The notes beneath the pieces were generated by a model. It was not told the origin of the DNA. It ran no database searches and saw nothing but the letters and a program-made list of their open reading frames with translations. A stretch of 64,000 nt of DNA, from positions 1 to 64,000 of the forward strand of contig NW_026939314.1 of the NCBI RefSeq assembly GCF_032062105.1, in the 5' to 3' direction. A program made the position numbers and the translations under genes. This document shows, piece by piece, positions 8,371 to 64,000 of this stretch. Positions within the stretch are counted from its first letter, which is position 1. Each line of letters begins with the position of its first letter. The DNA comes from Saccostrea cucullata. Its lineage: Eukaryota.

Positions 8371-9206
8371 CTAAGTTCTGCTTTTTACTGCTTTTGTACA
8401 TAACAAATCAAAATTAATTCATGAATTAAAAAAAAAAAACATTTAAAAAGCTACAACTTTAGGGACTTTTATGCTTTATTTTAATTACATTACGTTCCAT
8501 GAATCCATGTACATTTGTATATATTATATGTTAATATATTTTTATACAGACTTTCTACAACGCCATTGAATATGTTGAAGTAAAATAGGCGTTTGATTAA
8601 ATAAACCAGATTCAGTTTCAGTTTATAAGATGCTCGGTGCTGTCAACGTTCCTCTTAGATGTTTTCGTTGTAGTCCTTTGAAGTTGATTGAAAAGTTAAT
8701 AAAGCAATGATGATGAATTGTGTTATATGAACATTTGGAGGCTAATGTATAAAGTTTGAACTAATCAGTATTTTTTTTTTATAATTTGTGAGAATCATAA
8801 TAACGTCATCAGATAATTGTTTCTTTGAGATTTTCTTTCGAAAGAGCTGATTTTTTTTTTATTTCATTCAAGAAAATATATACCAGTATTATAAATCCTC
8901 ATTTCAAAGATAACAAATGAAAAAAAAATCACAACATAGCAGGCATTAGCTTAGTAAAATAAAAAGCACACGTTTATTGTATATTTTAACATACAATTTC
9001 AGAATATACACTGATGAAAATTCATATTAAATTCAATAAAATCGATACTTAAACAATAGTGAAATATGGAATACGTAACAGTTAACCAATCACTTTTGAG
9101 ACATTGATTATGGTACGATATATATATATCTGGCTGTTGAAAGACCATTTAGCAGAATTTCACAGATTCGCGAGAACGCGGCAGATTTTTACGCAACAAA
9201 AAAAAA

Positions 9207-12059
9207 ATGCGCATTCAGTGGGTTATCACTTTAATTGTAGGCTTCTTAGCTTTATCTAAAGCTACCATTATTTCTCAGAAATATGCTGCGAAACTTGACT
9301 TTAATGATAAGAAGTCAAACAATGACCTTTTAGGCGAACATGATGCTAAATCGTTGACTGAGTGCGCCGCGATGTGTCAAAGGGAATGTGTGTTTTTTGG
9401 TTTTAATCCTAAAATGAAGAAATGCCGTACCCACAAGAAAAGTCTAACGTCTGTGCTGTCTGAGGAGGCCGGCTGGAGATACTACTCAGATAACGGTATG
9501 TATATTTGGGGTTTTTTTTATTGTCTTAGCTTCTTTGGTTTTTTTAGGTCCTTCTCGAGGGGACACGATTTTTTTATCAAGTTTCTTGTTTTTTTTTGTT
9601 TTTTTTTTTTTTAGATTTTTCTAGCATGCCCAAAGATTGCAAGGATCTTCAAGAAAATGGACAAACCATCACAGGGGTGTATGATATATACCCCTACAGA
9701 ACATTAACCTTCCAATAAGTGTCTACTGCGACATGACCACGATGGGTGGTGGATGGACGGTAGGTTTTTTATTTTATGATTAAAAGTACTTAATATAACA
9801 CACCTTGTTTCGGTGGTTTTAAGGATTGTAGGATTGTATTGTAGTTTATATCATAAAAAATCGATCCTACGATTGTTCGAAGCAATAAATCTAAATGTAA
9901 TGTATGCTAATTTTTAAAGGCAATTCAGAAACGCGTAGACGGATCCGTAACCTTGGACAGGAACTGGACGGATTATAAGAATGGCTTTGGTTCACCAGAA
10001 CAGGATGTCTGGATTGGTAAGTGTAAATCGGTTTCAAATAAGAACTTTTAGTCCTTCAAAGTTTTAAGATAAAAAAAAAAATCTAAAGTTAAGACCAGGT
10101 AATGTGTGTTCTATGATATTCAGATATCGTGTTTTATTGATATTTCAAATAATAAAAAAAAAATAGAAAAGAGGAATATCATTTAGCGGCATATTCTAAT
10201 GAGACTAATTTAGCAATATTGTCTACAGCTATGGAAAATAATCTGATTTTTCATTACGGTAGATTCATATAGATTTTAAAAGAATTAATTGTATTCGATG
10301 AACTTTTCAGATGATTTCAAATATATCTTAATACAGGAAATGACGTAATCCATAAATTAACAAAAGAAAACCCATCATCCCTGTATGTGTCCATCACTCT
10401 TCAGAATGTTACAACGCTGTATGAAATGTACGACCGATTCTCTGTCTCCGACGAAGCAGGAAAATATCAACTCTTTCTTGCAGGACCTGCCACGGGAACT
10501 TTAGGTAAGTGTATTCATGTTATGTTATTAAAATTGGGTTAAAATAACGTATATTATCATAAGTATTCTTTTCTGTATTGAAAGATTATAAAGTTCTTGA
10601 AAAAAGAAAGATGTGTTTTTTTCTGATATTATGTATACTTTTTTGATTCCACGCTAAATAAACATGTTTAATATTACAGAATTTCATTTGCAGAAACAAT
10701 TCATATACTCAGCAGATATTGAATCTGTTATTGTCAAGTAGATAAAATTTCTAATTATACATCTAATGTACAAGGAAAAATTAATTTTTTTAAACAAACA
10801 AATCCAATAATTACATTTGTTCAACATTGCTTTTCAGATTGGGTTTCCTGATAATTTTTTATAATTCACATTTTAACTGATACGGAAAAAGTTTACAGCG
10901 CATGTTAGTCTGATTTTCAATGATCCACATTTTTTACTACTACTGAATAAGAAGTTTACCGTGCGTCATTAATCTTAAATGTCTAAAGATTAGCAAATTT
11001 TTGATGATAAAAAATATTTGATCGGATAAATATTCAAATAAAAAAAGCTTAAAATGCCTGATTCAAAAGACCTCAACGCGTTTCACATTTACATTTATTT
11101 AATAGGAAATCTACCATCTTAAAAGATTCACAGATACACCATATCTTATCTCCTTATTTATGATTTACTTTATATTGCATGTTATACATGTTTGAAGGCA
11201 CGTTCTCGGACAAATATTAAAATTTCATTTTTTCATATTTTCTAAAATTTCAAATGACCTTTAACCCCCCCCCCCCCCCAGTGTAACCCGTCTGTTATTT
11301 ATTGTTACACTAGAAAGGATGCTATGTGAATTGTGTAGTGTTTTGTTGTCTTGTATTATATTTATCTCTCCGTACAGGTAACAACACGTTAAACAATGTA
11401 TTTCAGACGTACTTCAGTATTAAGATTAATGTGATGTAAATTAATAATTATTATCTCTGTTATATATTTTCTCTAATTCTGCAGGTGCCAGTATGATAGA
11501 CACCAGGGATTCTACAGCTTAACTAAATAAATATTATCGCTCTACCCAGCACCTAAAGCCGTCTATCTTAGAAGTACCTCATTATTATTGACAATTAGAT
11601 TAAAAATATATAAATCAATTAACTTTGTGATTCCTTTTGTTTGATTTTACAGGGGACAGCATGTTTTATTTTACCATGATCTGTCTGGGATGTTCTTCTC
11701 CACCCAGACAGAGGTAACGACGAGTATAGTGGATATAACTCTGCTGATCTATTTTAAACAAGTGTCCATGTATTTTTTTCTTTTTTAATTTTACAGGAGA
11801 CAGTATGTTGGACACCGGTTCTTCTTGGGGAGATCTGTCTGGGATGTACTTCAGCACACCAGACAGAGATAACGACGGACAAAGTGGTTTTAACTGTGCT
11901 GATAACGGTGACATTAGAGGGGGCTGGTGGTTTAACGGATGTCACAAAGCCTTCCTTAACGGACAATGGTCCCCGGAGTCCTGGTCTTGTCCATGGTGTC
12001 CCACAGTAAGGAGTGGGACCTCAGTGAGGGGGACCATCATGATGATTAGACGCCACTAG
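9207..12059 (+). CDS. Secreted fibrinogen-related domain (FReD/ficolin-like) protein with an N-terminal PAN/apple-like module; exons 9207-9495, 9615-9759, 9920-10016, 10337-10504, 11797-12059; 1-nt frameshift near 9705-9712
   Basis: Signal peptide MRIQWVITLIVGFLALSKA; SLTECAAMC...C..FGFN...KC; FReD motifs PKDC, VYCDMTTMGGGWT|AIQKRVDGSV, WTDYKNGFG, VWIG|ND, FSTPDRDND and GGWWFNGCHKAFLNG. All introns are GT-AG with consistent phases. AATAAA at 12122. Confidence 0.9.
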
Positions 12060-56700: not shown

Positions 56701-57611
56701 ACGGCATTCCACATCAATCACATATGATCAACGTCACTTTTCTACTTGACATACTTTGAAAACCGTTACTACAAATCAACATTAACGTTTACATTTTCAT
56801 CTTTCTAATCTTTTTATCGGTATTTTAAAAAAAAACTTTGAATACAATTTCTTTTTCAATGGCTTATTTAAATATTTCTTAGGTATATGCAAGTTTTGTT
56901 TTTTCCAGGGGGTAAAACTGTATACATGTAGCACGTTAGAAAAAGAAACCACCACCCCACCCCCTTTTCTAATGATATTACATTTAATAAATTGTATGGA
57001 GATTTCATGTAAAATTTACCATGAAATTTCATTGACTTACAAAATGGTGCTGAAATTGCAATTTTTAAGGCTATAATTGTATAAACGCATAAGGTTCCTA
57101 TCGGCACTTTTAGATGACAGGTTCTTATATAAAAATTCTTTTTTTTTTCTGCGTTACATTTAGGTAAGAAAAATACGTAATCTTCGAGTTGCCCGGCCTG
57201 AATATACCATTGCTATAAAAACATTAACAATGTATTTGAAAAGTATAATTAATGATGTATACTTTATTACGTAAATAAAAAGATGATGCTAATTAAAAGC
57301 TAGATAATGCATTAATATATCTTATTAAACATGGGAAATTCCAGTTTAATGTCTTATACTATCTATATTGTATGTCATACAGCTCAGGACATTATTTATT
57401 AAACTGCACTCGTAAATGCTTACAGCAGCGATATTTACCGATTTCAATAATTATTTTGTTAATTACACGTGCAGATTTGCTTGACGAATTAAGGAAAACA
57501 GACATAAACAGAACTTAAACAAAATTATTTTCGTTAAAAATATGCAACCATTGAAACATTTTAAATCTGTTTGAGAATGATTTATGTTTTCAATGAAACA
57601 CAGGGACTGAC

Positions 57612-57830
57612 AGTAGTAAGGGGGGTAGTCTGGGGGCACCTTAGAGGCACCGCCACTCCCCAGGGCCGTCTGGGGTCACCATTCATAGGGTAGTCTGAGG
57701 GCACTTTAAAGGCACCCACCACTCGTAGGGCCGTCTAGGGTCACCACCCTTAGAGGCCGTTTGAGGTCAACTCTCCTAGGGCCGTCTGATATCAACTCTG
57801 TTAGGGGCGTCTGAGGTCACCCATCCCATG
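57612..57830. repeat. GC-rich subterminal short repeats of the putative TIR
   Basis: About seven copies of (A)GGG(CC/TA)GTCTG(A/G)GG(GT/GG)CACC in an otherwise AT-rich window. Confidence 0.75.
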
Positions 57831-58402
57831 AGTTCATTCTTACACATCCATTTTCATTTTCAACCTTGGGGTTTTTTTTTTTTTGTTTTTTTTTTCTAAT
57901 TTTAGGGAGTGGGGCATATATACCCACAAGATAATGACTTGTAACCATTTTTTCCAACACCTGCACAGCTTTCTACTTGTAATTATTCCATTTTAGTGCT
58001 ACAACTAAGGGATTGTCAAGGGTACACCTGAGGTACCCGAGAAATCATTACTATAAAAAGTCCAAACTTTTTCCCAAAAATTTTCACAGTCCATGCAGTC
58101 TTAGTTTAAACGAAGAGGGAGTGTTGGCATCTTGGATTAGTAAGTAATAAATAGTAATACACAGCTTGTTTCTTGTTTCCGTATTAAATTTTGCGATAAA
58201 AAAAAATTCAATACCAGCATCAATAACAACAATAAAAAAAATCTGTATTTTATTAATTAAGTTTTAATTCTTCAATATCAATTGTAAATGTACATGATTT
58301 CACATTTAATATGATAAAACGATCTGCTGACACATATGACCAAAACTTATCAGTACAAAATAAAAAAAAATTACTGTCAGTTCTCTTTAATTCCAGTTGA
58401 CT

Positions 58403-59324
58403 TTACTTAAATTTTTTCATATAATCTTGAACATAGTTCACAAGCATTGAACTTTGAAGTAAATCAACTCGTAGAGAGTCGATTAAATCAGACAGTGCCC
58501 CTAACTCCTCTTTTAAAGGATATTGGGAATCTTGAGGTCTGCATATCATCTGAGCATACCCGGATGACGCTGGGGTATTCATAACTGGAGTCTGAAGTGG
58601 AGTCCAGATGTGTTCAGGAGAAGGAAGGACATGTTCTTGTTTCACTGGGACATATCCTTGTGATCCTTGACACGCTGGAGTCACTGGTGACACAGGGCTA
58701 TACCCTGGTGACGTGGGGCTTGGTGATGCGGGGAGGCTTGGTGACACAGGGCTATACCCTGGTGACATGGGGCTTGGTGATGCGGGGAGGCTTGGTGACA
58801 CAGGGCTATACCCTGGTGACACTGGGCTATATCCTGATGCTGCTGAGGAATAGCCAGATGTCAACGATCCTAAGGTGAACGTACACCTGGTACTAGCTCT
58901 TTTTTCCAAGGCTTCATACTTTCCAGGGTTTTCCCGTCTGTAATTAAAGAACAAAACATAAAGTATCTAACCGAGCATACAAAGTCCTAATCTGTTAAGA
59001 AAATATTGAAAAAAAATGTTCTACATTTAAATTCTAAGACTTTAAACTTTAGAGTTGTTCTGTTTTCAAGATTATTATTCAATCCTTATATTTTTTTTTT
59101 TGTTTATGGTATCATTCTTTTTTTTTTTCGTATCAAAGTTCGACATGTACATTTGTAATACACTTAACTTATGAAAACAACTATACCTAAATGTTTTCAG
59201 CTGTGGATCCTCTTTATCTGTTTCTTGGGTGAACCCTACTTTCCCTTTTTGTTTTACCATTTTCCTTTTTAAAAAAAAATACATTTAAAAAATTTTACAA
59301 TTTAAGCTTACAATTTAAGCAAAT

Positions 59325-59380
<56 letters not shown>

Positions 59381-60243
59381 TCCTTAGAGGTAAGATTTAC
59401 CTTCGAGTTAAAATAATCGAGTCCTCTGACTCGCTCAGTGATCTTTTTATCCCCCTTTTCACTGGCTCTTCTTTCAGTTGGAGGTCTTGGGGGGAATTCC
59501 TAGTTAAACAGAAATTTTAAGACATTTTGTAAAAGAAAATAAAGCAAAATAAAGCAAATATATAAAGAACTACGTACGCTAAATCTCGATCCCAGCCTAC
59601 ATTTTACACCCATTTAATTCAATGATTATTTCGATTTGACCATAAAATCTATGCAAAGAAGACTTCAATGGTAATTGATTAATAATTTTTATACCAGTGT
59701 TTAATTTTTAATAACTCTTATTTCCAGCTGTATTTATATGGGTACACAGCGTTTTCCATTTTAATCGGGCTTGAACGCGTAAGCATATTTCAAAATATTC
59801 TTGGATATAAATAAAAGTTCCTTAAATCTTTCTTATGGTTCACACATATAAAATTAAACAAATGTAATTGATTATATACACTGTTTTAATTGTAAATCCT
59901 TCGGGGGGAAAAAAGAGTTATATCTCTTTGTTTTCTCGACAAAGTAATGTTTTATGAAAATTCAAATTTATATCTAAAGAAATATCAAATGTAGTTAACC
60001 TCTGCAAATGGACTAGGAGGTAGGCGGGGGAACAAAATTATCGTTTGCAGTTCTTTGTAATTTAGAAAAATGCTTATAAATTGGTTTTTTAAATCTGAAT
60101 TTTTTAAATGAGTTACGAATTTTAAGAATATCAACTTACCCCGAATCAAACACCACCTCAAAATCTTTTCCCAACTCTAACCATTCCTTTTCAAAATCTC
60201 CAAATGTCTTTGAAGGCGACGAAGTAAAGAAAGCTTCAGCCAT
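58403..60243 (-). CDS. Novel 271-aa putative nuclear protein with RNA Pol II CTD-like YSPVSP repeats; exons 60243-60140, 59499-59401, 59264-59187, 58937-58403
   Basis: Three GT-AG introns, all phase 2, join into one open frame of 816 nt: MAEAFFTSSPSKTFGDFEKEWLELGKDFEVVFDSG|NSPQDLQLKEEPVKRGIKRSLSESEDSIILTRR|KMVKQKGKVGFTQETDKEDPQLKTFR|RENPGKY...GYSPVSP...YMKKFK*. Confidence 0.75.
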
Positions 60244-60313
60244 CTCTTGTCTTTTGAAGGTTTTTTTTTTTCTGAAGTCAGTTATATTATTTTTTTTTTA
60301 CATTTATCCATCC

Positions 60314-60345
60314 TATTTATATTCCGGGGGGACGAAGGGGCGGGG
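60314..60345 (-). promoter_or_regulatory. TATA box plus GC box upstream of the CTD-like gene
   Basis: Minus strand reads CCCCGCCCC (60345-60337) then TATAAATA (60321-60314), about 70 nt upstream of the ATG at 60243. Confidence 0.6.
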
Positions 60346-61775: not shown

Positions 61776-62434
61776 TTGTTCAATCATACTTTGTAAATAA
61801 TTCATTGAAAAAAATCACTTTGTAAATAATTCATTTAAAAAAAATATCACAAATCATTAAATCAAATTCATTTAATTTACAAATAAATTCACGATTTTCT
61901 TTTTTAATGATTTAAAATCAAAGATACTAATCAAGAGTGTGATTATGCTACCGGGTATGTGCTTGTTTGTGTATTTTTAAAAAATCTTTATATCATTTTA
62001 AAAATAATTCATTATCTAAAAAATGCAAGATTGTTCTTTCATTCACGCCCAAAGTACAGAGACCGACAACCAAGACGTGTGTCGTCGTTTTCTAATTTGA
62101 AAATCCTCGTGACCCCAATTATTAAATCACCCGGCCAAAGGTGTTGAAATTATAATAGCTATACCACCCAATATATTAATGTATGAACAATAATGATGCC
62201 CTGTGTAGACCCAATTTAACTCAATTTAACATAAATAAAATAACAGAAAAAAACATTGATTGCATTTGAGAAATGAAAGATATCAGCTAGGCGACGGATG
62301 CGGGAATTTGATCAGAGCTAAAAAACCCGCATCAGAGCACGTGCGTAAACCTAATTGATATCTCCATATATGGGATTCGCGGGTAAAAAGTCATATGACC
62401 AAAAAAAAAACGCCATTATTTCAAGACGGAGAAG

Positions 62435-63918
62435 ATGAGGATGAGACGAAAAGAATTGTGGTTTATGCTCATGGTAACATGCATGCATGTTAAAATTTCT
62501 GAAGGATCGCCTTGGCCCTGCAGAATCTGTCCAATCACTAGTACCGGAATAGCAGACTGTAGACACATCATTTCTGGTTGCGTGAGAGTAATTCCGTGGC
62601 CCCTGGACTATCTCAGAGAGATTATGATGTTTAGTTGTTTAATAAAATTGGAACCCGAGAATGCTAAGCAGTTTGCGAAAAATCGATTCGGGGAGGCGTG
62701 CAATACCAATGGTAAGTATTCAATTTTTTTTCATATATAACTTTTTTTTCTTTGGTAAAACTATATTTAAATATTTGAATTTTTCCAGTTGGAAATGTCC
62801 AAGTTTAATATTTACTCATTTTCCAATTTTCTCTTCACCCCCCCCCCTTTTTTTTTTATTATACGTATCACTCGGTTATTTTTCTCTACGAATATGACCG
62901 AGGAGTTACGAGTGAATGGAATGTTGTGTACATGATTTGTGACGTCACCAAACTTGGGGTAAACAGTATGGTCACCGTGACTTCCCATTCTATTCATTTC
63001 ATTTTTGAAGCATCAGATTATTTTAATGCTACAGACACTAGAATTCGACTGCTAAGTTTTTGTAACAGGTATAGTATATACTAGAGAAAGAGTTCGTATC
63101 AGAACACAAGTTTACTGTTTCAAATTTATTAAACCTGAATCAAATCATGGTACTTCAACCAGAGAAAACTAATTTTAAAAAAATCTGTACATGTTATAAT
63201 TAGTTCATTATTGTTAAATGGGGATGACATCTGGGCAAAAGAAGTTGTACAATACACAAATTTAAGAGTCCTCTATGCACTGTACACTAAAGAGTTCTAA
63301 TTTTGTGGTAGTTATATGCAAATAGTTTTCTGTCCTTGATCATTCATAAAATAAAACAAATTAAAATGTATAATTTATTCCTTAACTTTCACCAAATCAG
63401 GCATTCATAACATTTTAGTAGACCAAGATGAATAGTCAAAGAATTCAAAGAAACACAATATCCTATAAATTTGAAACTGATTGTCGAAAACATTTTGTAA
63501 ATATTTCATGTCAATTGGGAATTGCTAAATGATTTTTTTTTTTCCACAGGTGTACCTAGTTCTACAACTACCCGTGACATTACAGAAACTACTAGGCCTA
63601 CCCTCTCCAAGACTGCTACAAAAACCTTATTGCCAGAATCAAATAGCGAAGACAAGACTTTTGATGACTTCAAAGCAGAAGGTCAGTGTATAAAACTGTC
63701 ATATTCCCTTTATGTATTATGGGACTGATTGTCAAAACAACATTTTGTAAATATTTCATGTCAATTGGGAATTGCTAAATGATTTTTTTTTTCCACAGGT
63801 GTACTTAGTTCTACAACTACCCCTGACCTTACAGAAACTACTAGGCCTACCCTCTCCAAGACCTTAAGGTCGGAATCAGAAAGCGAAGACAAGACTTTTG
63901 ATGACTTCAAGGCAGAAG
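62435..63918 (+). CDS. Secreted or surface protein: signal peptide, Cys-rich (LRRNT-like) domain and tandem Thr/Ser-rich mucin exons; exons 62435-62711, 63550-63681, 63799-63918; incomplete at the window end
   Basis: Hydrophobic leader LWFMLMVTCMHVKISEG; WPCRICPITSTGIADCRHIISGCVRVIPW; donor G|GTAAGT; two phase-1/1 exons (GVPSSTTTRDITETTRPT... and GVLSSTTTPDLTETTRPT...) with CAG| acceptors and |GTCAGT donors. Confidence 0.7.
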
Positions 63919-64000
63919 GTCAGTGTATAAAACTGTCATATTCCCTTTATGTATTATGGGACTGATTGTCAAAACAACATTTTGTAAATATTTCATGTCA

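Follow-up and report, generated by a model that had tools for sequence, protein, structure and literature searches.

Terminal accessory genes of oyster Polintons carry YSPxSP words that resemble the tail of RNA polymerase II

The window analyzed here comprises 64,000 nucleotides of Saccostrea cucullata, the opening 64 kb of contig NW_026939314.1, which is 90.8 kb long. Near its right end begins a Polinton/Maverick element that spans positions 57612–79013 (21.4 kb) and continues past the window end. The parts of the element that fall within the window, apart from the gene treated below, are as follows.

57606–57611: target-site duplication ACTGAC, 6 bp, with its twin directly after contig base 79013
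57612–57787, plus strand: left TIR, 176 bp, beginning AGTAGT; 170 of 176 bases identical to the right TIR (contig 78838–79013)
57612–64000: left part of the Polinton/Maverick, which runs on to contig position 79013
62399–64000, plus strand: divergent second accessory gene, read by eye, which runs on to contig position 65150

Beyond the window, the element encodes pPolB (PF03175 at E values of 4e-19 and 7e-26 in two ORFs), an rve integrase with a chromodomain (PF00665, 2e-10; PF00385, 2e-8), and a CARD-PC4 gene. In the module where they would be expected lie a candidate A32-like packaging ATPase (PF04665, E 0.002) and a candidate C48-like cysteine protease (PF02902, E 0.008), whose matches fall short of the curated Pfam cut-offs. 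Two ORFs of 441 and 157 amino acids are presumed capsid proteins by their position. Neither ORF matched Pfam, NCBIfam or PDB, and the longer one gave one weak PHROG match of unknown function. A second insertion, on contig C6581, shares 99.7% identity across the 1,311 bases compared and has a different flank, which indicates that the element moved recently. The termini (AGTAGT on the left, ACTACT on the right) and the 6-bp duplication correspond to the Maverick hallmarks given in PMC8097293, (AGT)2//(ACT)2 or (AG)3 ends and a 6-bp target duplication, and the length lies within the 12–25 kb of such elements; vertebrate Mavericks range from 12.7 to 24.6 kb in the same text. With the Polintons/Mavericks (adintoviruses) treated in PMC8097293 and PMC11071296, the element shares its ends, duplication, pPolB, integrase-chromodomain, and an accessory region beside the TIR, and the candidate ATPase and protease would fit the same pattern. 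It is a young, ordinary Polinton/Maverick.

One feature of its core genes deserves separate mention. In four copies, pPolB is broken by a GT-AG gap at one common site (contig 69747–69900; C17385, C5986, and C12981), and it is continuous in the C6581-type element. The gap is likely a spliceosomal intron in a Polinton core gene. Vertebrate Mavericks, by contrast, are reported in PMC8097293 to have intronless core genes, whereas the oyster element has this gap as well as three introns in an accessory gene.

That accessory gene, our main subject, is the first inside the left TIR; it reads toward the terminus and ends 791 bases from it.

60316–60343, minus strand: TATA box (60321–60316) and GC box (60338–60343), sequence motifs
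60140–60243, minus strand: exon 1, with an acidic-aromatic DFExEW motif
59500–60139, minus strand: intron 1, GT-AG, phase 2, donor conserved in paralogs
59401–59499, minus strand: exon 2, with two basic clusters, probably an NLS
59265–59400, minus strand: intron 2, GT-AG, phase 2, with a (TC)n microsatellite inside
59187–59264, minus strand: exon 3, from the gene model and paralog alignment
58938–59186, minus strand: intron 3, GT-AG, phase 2
58403–58937, minus strand: exon 4, with the end of a two-helix motif, a Ser/Pro linker, the C-terminal helix, and the stop
58685–58831, minus strand: four YSPVSP words (58831–58814, 58810–58793, 58756–58739, 58702–58685), at spacings of 7, 18, and 18 amino acids
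58406–58522, minus strand: conserved, family-defining C-terminal amphipathic helix, from profile, alignment, and fold
58249–58254, minus strand: candidate polyadenylation signal AATAAA, by motif (ATTAAA also at 58391, 58310, and 58268)

A first-pass annotation of this DNA had proposed a four-exon gene with uniform phase-2 introns, a 271-residue product, and a TATA/GC-box promoter, and reassembly from the window sequence reproduces all of this: minus-strand exons 60243–60140, 59499–59401, 59264–59187, and 58937–58403 join into 271 amino acids, each of the three introns is GT-AG and phase 2, TATAAA lies 78 bases 5' of the ATG with the GC box further upstream, and AATAAA lies 3' of the stop. Four paralogs have a comparable TATA context, and among 23 first exons matched in paralogs, 15 have the exon-1 donor GT at the identical phase, some of the other eight perhaps being offsets or decayed copies. 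Relative to the closest paralog, exons 2 and 3 and the start of exon 4 are ~95% identical and the introns 85–91%, with exon 1 at 89% and a gap (the paralog copy is broken); in distant paralogs, alignment is limited to the coding parts. The same junctions are traversed by predicted gene models of other oysters (Ostrea edulis, Saccostrea echinata, and Crassostrea/Magallana). Some further named records merely duplicate copies present in the analyzed genome and are therefore not independent support. On the strength of this comparison of sequences, we take the gene model to hold and the gene to be real.

Junction reads across the three introns, which would have been a direct sign of splicing, were not recovered. 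The intron joints of the gene were absent from four runs (X1, X2, X4, and X5) and those of the paralog L041 from four (X3–X6), six different runs in total, and because the runs had no host-gene positive control, this null result indicates no expression in those libraries rather than absence of splicing. The exons were almost uncovered in three poly(A) runs, and contigs from X1 and X2 span introns as well as exons, as DNA would. Repeat reads are mostly 90–95% alike, so the runs may stem from another lineage.

From N to C terminus, full-length members of the family consist of the DFExEW motif, the exon-2 basic clusters, a two-helix motif that straddles the exon 3/4 junction, a variable Ser/Pro linker, and the C-terminal helix, in which E, L, and D-L-x-Q are nearly invariant. 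The elements described at first reading are present in the translated model: the acidic-aromatic N terminus, the basic clusters KRGIKRS (residue 49) and RRKMVKQK (residue 67), of a kind that recurs in full-length homologs, and the C-terminal amphipathic helix, which is conserved across the family and predicted to be helical. Three psi-KxE motifs also exist, at residues 43, 192, and 235, but they are not conserved, and we rejected them as SUMO sites: the third, LKEE, coincides with the beginning of the conserved helix, at which the lysine is not kept, and the Ostrea homolog lacks the first.

One subfamily retains the DFExEW motif and both helical blocks with a linker of only ~10 residues, whereas 60–200 residues part the two blocks in motif-bearing members. 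For a linker-less protein, P0092 (51-row alignment), structure prediction gave helices at residues 7–21, 23–38, and 46–80 (pLDDT 80.5, pTM 0.40), the last being amphipathic and ~35 residues long. These helices are confidently predicted and do not pack in the monomer model, which fits an oligomer. Comparison with 48,161 solved chains produced only single-helix matches (best Z 4.9), and the likeness of the long helix is to coiled coils in general. A bZIP-like fold, with a basic helix continuous with a zipper, found no support in this comparison. We found no DNA-binding domain in the family protein, no LxCxE or PxDLS in the 18 relatives scanned, and neither LxCxE nor paired CxxC in the window protein.

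The family is numerous in this genome and, in the searches made, has no relative outside oyster-associated records. A query of the last 53 residues matched 58 of 97 candidates in the genome, a lower bound on the number of copies. A profile of the C-terminal helix retrieved 74 proteins among 1.84 billion representatives, two of which (P0058 and P0070) were repetitive false matches and were removed. Twenty-one matches were looked up, and the named ones are oyster proteins with two exceptions, a record labelled as an oyster parasite, which probably represents host contamination, and a JGI record without an organism name. IMG/VR and JGI metagenome contigs yielded no relative. Apart from PF05001, the protein matched nothing in Pfam, and searches of PHROGs, NCBIfam, PDB sequences, and the ESM Atlas were equally blank. 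Two relatives carry the NCBI name "RPB1-like."

The gene had been suspected to be encoded by a mobile element, and co-occurrence of its homologs with Polinton TIRs had been named as a check; both expectations were borne out. The gene in the window sits between TIRs that are themselves bordered by a target duplication. Across the genome, 25 of the 58 copies have a correctly oriented Polinton end no more than 3 kb downstream and none (0/58) has a reversed end beside it, a count in which seven of the ends served as search seeds, most copies could be read only ~1.5 kb downstream, and one further copy, C2006, is omitted. Twenty control stretches (152,131 bases) contained no Polinton end, and none of the 20 had core genes. 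Polinton core genes were matched on 14 of 42 family contigs, the other 28 having none within the 7–30 kb read, and on six contigs the family gene and pPolB are arranged head to head, less than 10 kb apart. The core genes found on C6581 and near one C19158 copy are those of a neighboring or nested element. The linker-less subfamily is also found at Polinton ends (C16752, C11954, and C19945). The gene is a terminal accessory gene of an oyster Polinton, a context that is shown for the window copy and that the family tends to follow in the analyzed genome; some copies without a Polinton end could be domesticated. We also considered carriage by a second, endonuclease-VII-type Polinton clade and rejected it, as the end of that element (C19158:27518) falls within a family gene copy.

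The copies have further peculiarities of arrangement. Many have a partial second copy of the C-terminal helix 150–400 bases downstream of the first (C4689, C10891, C14600, C17511, C19461, C6062, C2006, and C11242). C19461 and C9002 have alike layouts of 50–65 kb in which family copies face outward at both sides of a pPolB fragment and LTR-retrotransposon ORFs; these are possibly larger or nested decayed elements.

The first-pass annotation described the linker as a series of CTD-like heptads. The four YSPVSP words stand, but not the heptad array: read in the CTD register, the region contains one degenerate unit (2/7), YSPVSPG and YSPVSPS as the only adjacent heptads, and then two words at 18-residue steps, with no YSPTSPS and no Thr4 in the window protein. 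The two 18-residue units are a recent 54-bp tandem duplication, 97% identical and with almost uniform codons.

The word itself is nevertheless retained well beyond this copy. When both helical anchors are required, YSPxSP occurs in 12 of 18 lineages (11 of 17 after allowing for two rows that are one gene), against a shuffle mean of 0.06. When the C-terminal anchor alone is required, so that fragments are admitted, Y[ST]PxSP occurs in 18 of 43, 12 of 34, and 7 of 22 lineages at 90, 80, and 70% collapse (shuffle means 0.12, 0.09, and 0.06). The claim that the register is conserved across copies thus holds for about one-third of lineages, far above shuffles; the remaining two-thirds or so have no word in the available sequence, many being fragments or decayed copies. 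The lineages share ancestry, so these counts are not independent events; a 38-column tree cannot order the lineages, and the first word may have been inherited. With one position left open at a time, the expected residue is found in 13 of 17 words for Tyr1, 13 of 22 for Ser2 (the loosest of the five fixed positions), 13 of 19 for Pro3, 13 of 15 for Ser5, and 13 of 14 for Pro6. Positions 4 and 7 vary freely, with T and S, respectively, in 1 of 15 family words each. That Tyr opens 13 of 17 xSPxSP words, against a background of 3%, argues that this is not a plain SP-rich linker.

Arrays in the relatives have periods of 7, 9, 12, 16, and 18 residues, with true 7-residue tandem registers in six (P0001, P0008, P0013, P0014, P0022, and P0089); units are 12 residues long in the closest paralog and 7 residues long in the Ostrea homolog. 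Such differing unit lengths around one word suggest that the arrays were rebuilt separately. The family as a whole spans zero to seven words at varied spacings, and the word persists in linkers that are otherwise unalignable. A lack of spliced transcripts, or homologs without heptads that would reduce the repeats to 54-bp slippage, had been named beforehand as signs against a CTD-like function. Both occur in part, the one in the runs examined and the other in the linker-less subfamily, but retention of the word in 12 of 34 lineages and its amplification at several periods argue that slippage is not the whole explanation. At the same time, the linker-less subfamily and the wordless lineages indicate that the word is not needed for the core job of the family.

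How far, then, does the likeness to the CTD extend? The host RPB1 CTD, on C21863, has 44 heptads, mostly YSPTSPS, with Thr4 in 31 and Ser7 in 28, both rare in the family words. Pfam PF05001 scores the window protein at 20.2 bits against a cut-off of 20.3. The Y1-S2-P3-x-S5-P6 word is common to both, but the CTD is part of the polymerase, and the window protein, which is not a polymerase, has only four words, with Val4 and irregular spacing. Its repeat region is not a CTD. PMC8835803 gives YSPxSPx as the ancestral word of the CTD, the Toxoplasma CTD consists of nine YSPxSPx words whose Ser5 is phosphorylated by Cdk7 (PMC5069487), and the fission yeast CTD requires Tyr1, Pro3, Ser5, and Pro6, whereas Ser2, Thr4, and Ser7 are dispensable (PMC8051263). 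That the letters essential in fission yeast are kept in the family while the others drift is the best argument for mimicry, albeit on small numbers. According to PMC6548728, yeast has a di-heptad as the minimal CTD unit and mammals a penta-heptad, so the family protein cannot replace a full CTD. Separately, a 378-residue frame on C6117 (~68100; L206) contains many YRPTSPS/YKPTSPS-like heptads; it is neither RPB1 nor a family member and is a second CTD-like protein.

The explanation that we favor, with a probability of roughly 40%, is that the product is a nuclear hub protein whose disordered linker would present CTD-like YSPxSP words to CTD kinases and readers. The basic clusters would direct it to the nucleus, and the long helix would form oligomers, which would make even one to four words per chain multivalent. 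CDK7/CDK9-type kinases could then phosphorylate Ser5 and Ser2 of the words, readers of single heptads (Pin1, capping enzyme, and CTD phosphatases) could bind them, and the acidic-aromatic N terminus might contact a coactivator. The protein could act as an E1A-like adaptor that helps the element to have its own Pol II-type, spliced genes transcribed and their RNAs processed, or as a pure decoy that dampens host transcription; if the protein is CTD-directed at all, we lean slightly toward the adaptor. Recruitment or sequestration of the CTD machinery, as proposed in the first-pass annotation, is a hypothesis. That the protein would be a CTD mimic of viral or transposon origin, which the same annotation raised, we hold as a tentative possibility. 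Speaking for the hub reading are the anatomy of the element, the family at Polinton ends, retention of the motif, the Tyr1 excess, the 7-residue registers, and the recurrent basic clusters; on the other side are the missing intron joints, the presence of only two adjacent heptads, the rarity of Thr4 and Ser7, the linker-less subfamily, and the lack of a DNA-binding domain.

The main rival keeps a nuclear accessory protein but makes YSPxSP a general proline-directed phospho-switch (for MAPK, cell-cycle CDKs, GSK3, and Pin1) that controls stability or timing, the likeness to the CTD reflecting shared kinase chemistry. MAPKs and CDKs usually act on PxSP; in the family, arrays often have periods other than 7, neither Thr4 nor Ser7 is retained, and many lineages make do with single words, all as such a switch would have it. 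Generic proline-directed kinases, however, make no demand for Tyr1 or for exact 7-residue registers, and the preponderance of Tyr1 in xSPxSP words and the six relatives with exact tandems make this account, to us, somewhat unlikely. A less likely proposal does away with the function of the linker altogether, treating it as neutral low-complexity slippage, the motif as an inherited relic, and the helical core as all that matters. The near-identical 54-bp units with their uniform codons, the linker-less subfamily, and the broken array of the C9002 paralog all agree with it; it does not readily explain why the word is kept in unalignable linkers or why expansions of different unit lengths repeatedly carry it (though not those of L042, L046, and L062), and we regard it as improbable. 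We give slightly less credence still to a virion, genome-packaging, or replication factor, in which a coiled-coil scaffold would be joined to a phosphorylation-controlled spacer. Such a role would suit the long amphipathic helix with its generic coiled-coil matches and the retention of the gene in many Polinton copies, but the gene is placed in the accessory region at the end of the element, away from the morphogenesis module, and has a TATA promoter of its own; the N terminus resembles an activation domain; and the family, unlike core genes, had no relative outside oyster-associated records in the searches made.

Two other accounts concern origin. That the repeats were taken over from the RPB1 tail of the host, or from the linker of that tail, seems very unlikely. 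The window repeats do align to the host pre-CTD linker slightly better than chance, with a score reached by 14 of 300 unit-shuffled linkers (3 of 300 for the closest paralog), but twelve queries were tried, only 9 of 35 identical residues share a codon, and the repeats score higher against consensus CTD than against the linker. No DNA match beyond 10 bases was found between family repeats and the host CTD, and the protein likeness to the linker is marginal. A recent capture is not supported; convergence is the more likely origin. Finally, we think it extremely improbable that the family is one of host genes, or that by-eye joining of exons created an artefact. The "RPB1-like" names, the 28 contigs without core genes, and the lack of junction reads could be read in that way. 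Against this, the TIRs and target duplication refute a host gene for the window copy, and the second insertion with its different flank, the 25 oriented ends, and the conserved donor and junctions speak for a real, mobile gene.

Among known systems, the proposed hub protein can be compared with the Oncoids, short-linear-motif proteins that adintoviruses encode upstream of PolB and that carry LxCxE, and with adenovirus E1A (PMC8502044). The oyster family resembles them as a short-motif protein in the same position upstream of PolB. The analogy is not exact, as the oyster protein has a CTD-like motif in place of the LxCxE of the others, and its gene reads toward the terminus. Other viral proteins, such as influenza polymerase and KSHV ORF24, are reported to reach Pol II via its tail by binding the CTD or Pol II, whereas the oyster protein would imitate the CTD. 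In the literature searched, we found no description of the oyster family or of a virus-encoded CTD mimic; the Adintoc lists in the supplements to PMC8502044 could hold the family under an earlier name. What is known here is the element, an ordinary Polinton/Maverick, and what appears new is an accessory family with CTD-like words. If the hub reading is correct, a protein that copies the tail would represent a different takeover of transcription than viral proteins that bind it. With the natural series from zero to seven words, one could ask which letters of the CTD, and at what spacing, the host enzymes require away from the polymerase. The family also offers a first way into the regulation of Polinton genes in molluscs and, with the pPolB gap, an instance of Polintons with spliceosomal introns, and it accounts for oyster gene models misnamed "RPB1-like."

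Several other genes were noted. The second accessory gene is likewise spliced, with a signal-peptide-like Cys-rich exon, 237-bp repeated units with Thr-rich exons and, past the window, a hydrophobic segment and then a tail. Pfam gave no match to it from 62399 onward, relatives lie near four other family copies, and its product resembles a membrane protein with a mucin stalk. The CARD-PC4 gene (contig 77139–78152, minus strand), at the element's right end, fuses CARD to PC4, a Pol II coactivator family, and at least four other copies keep this fusion. A different Polinton, adjoining the second insertion on C6581, encodes an IAP with BIR and RING domains (L019:2360–2977). Outside the element, a host gene in the window (9153–9614, plus strand) has a 153-residue frame with a signal-peptide-like start and, by eye, a PAN/apple-like Cys pattern.
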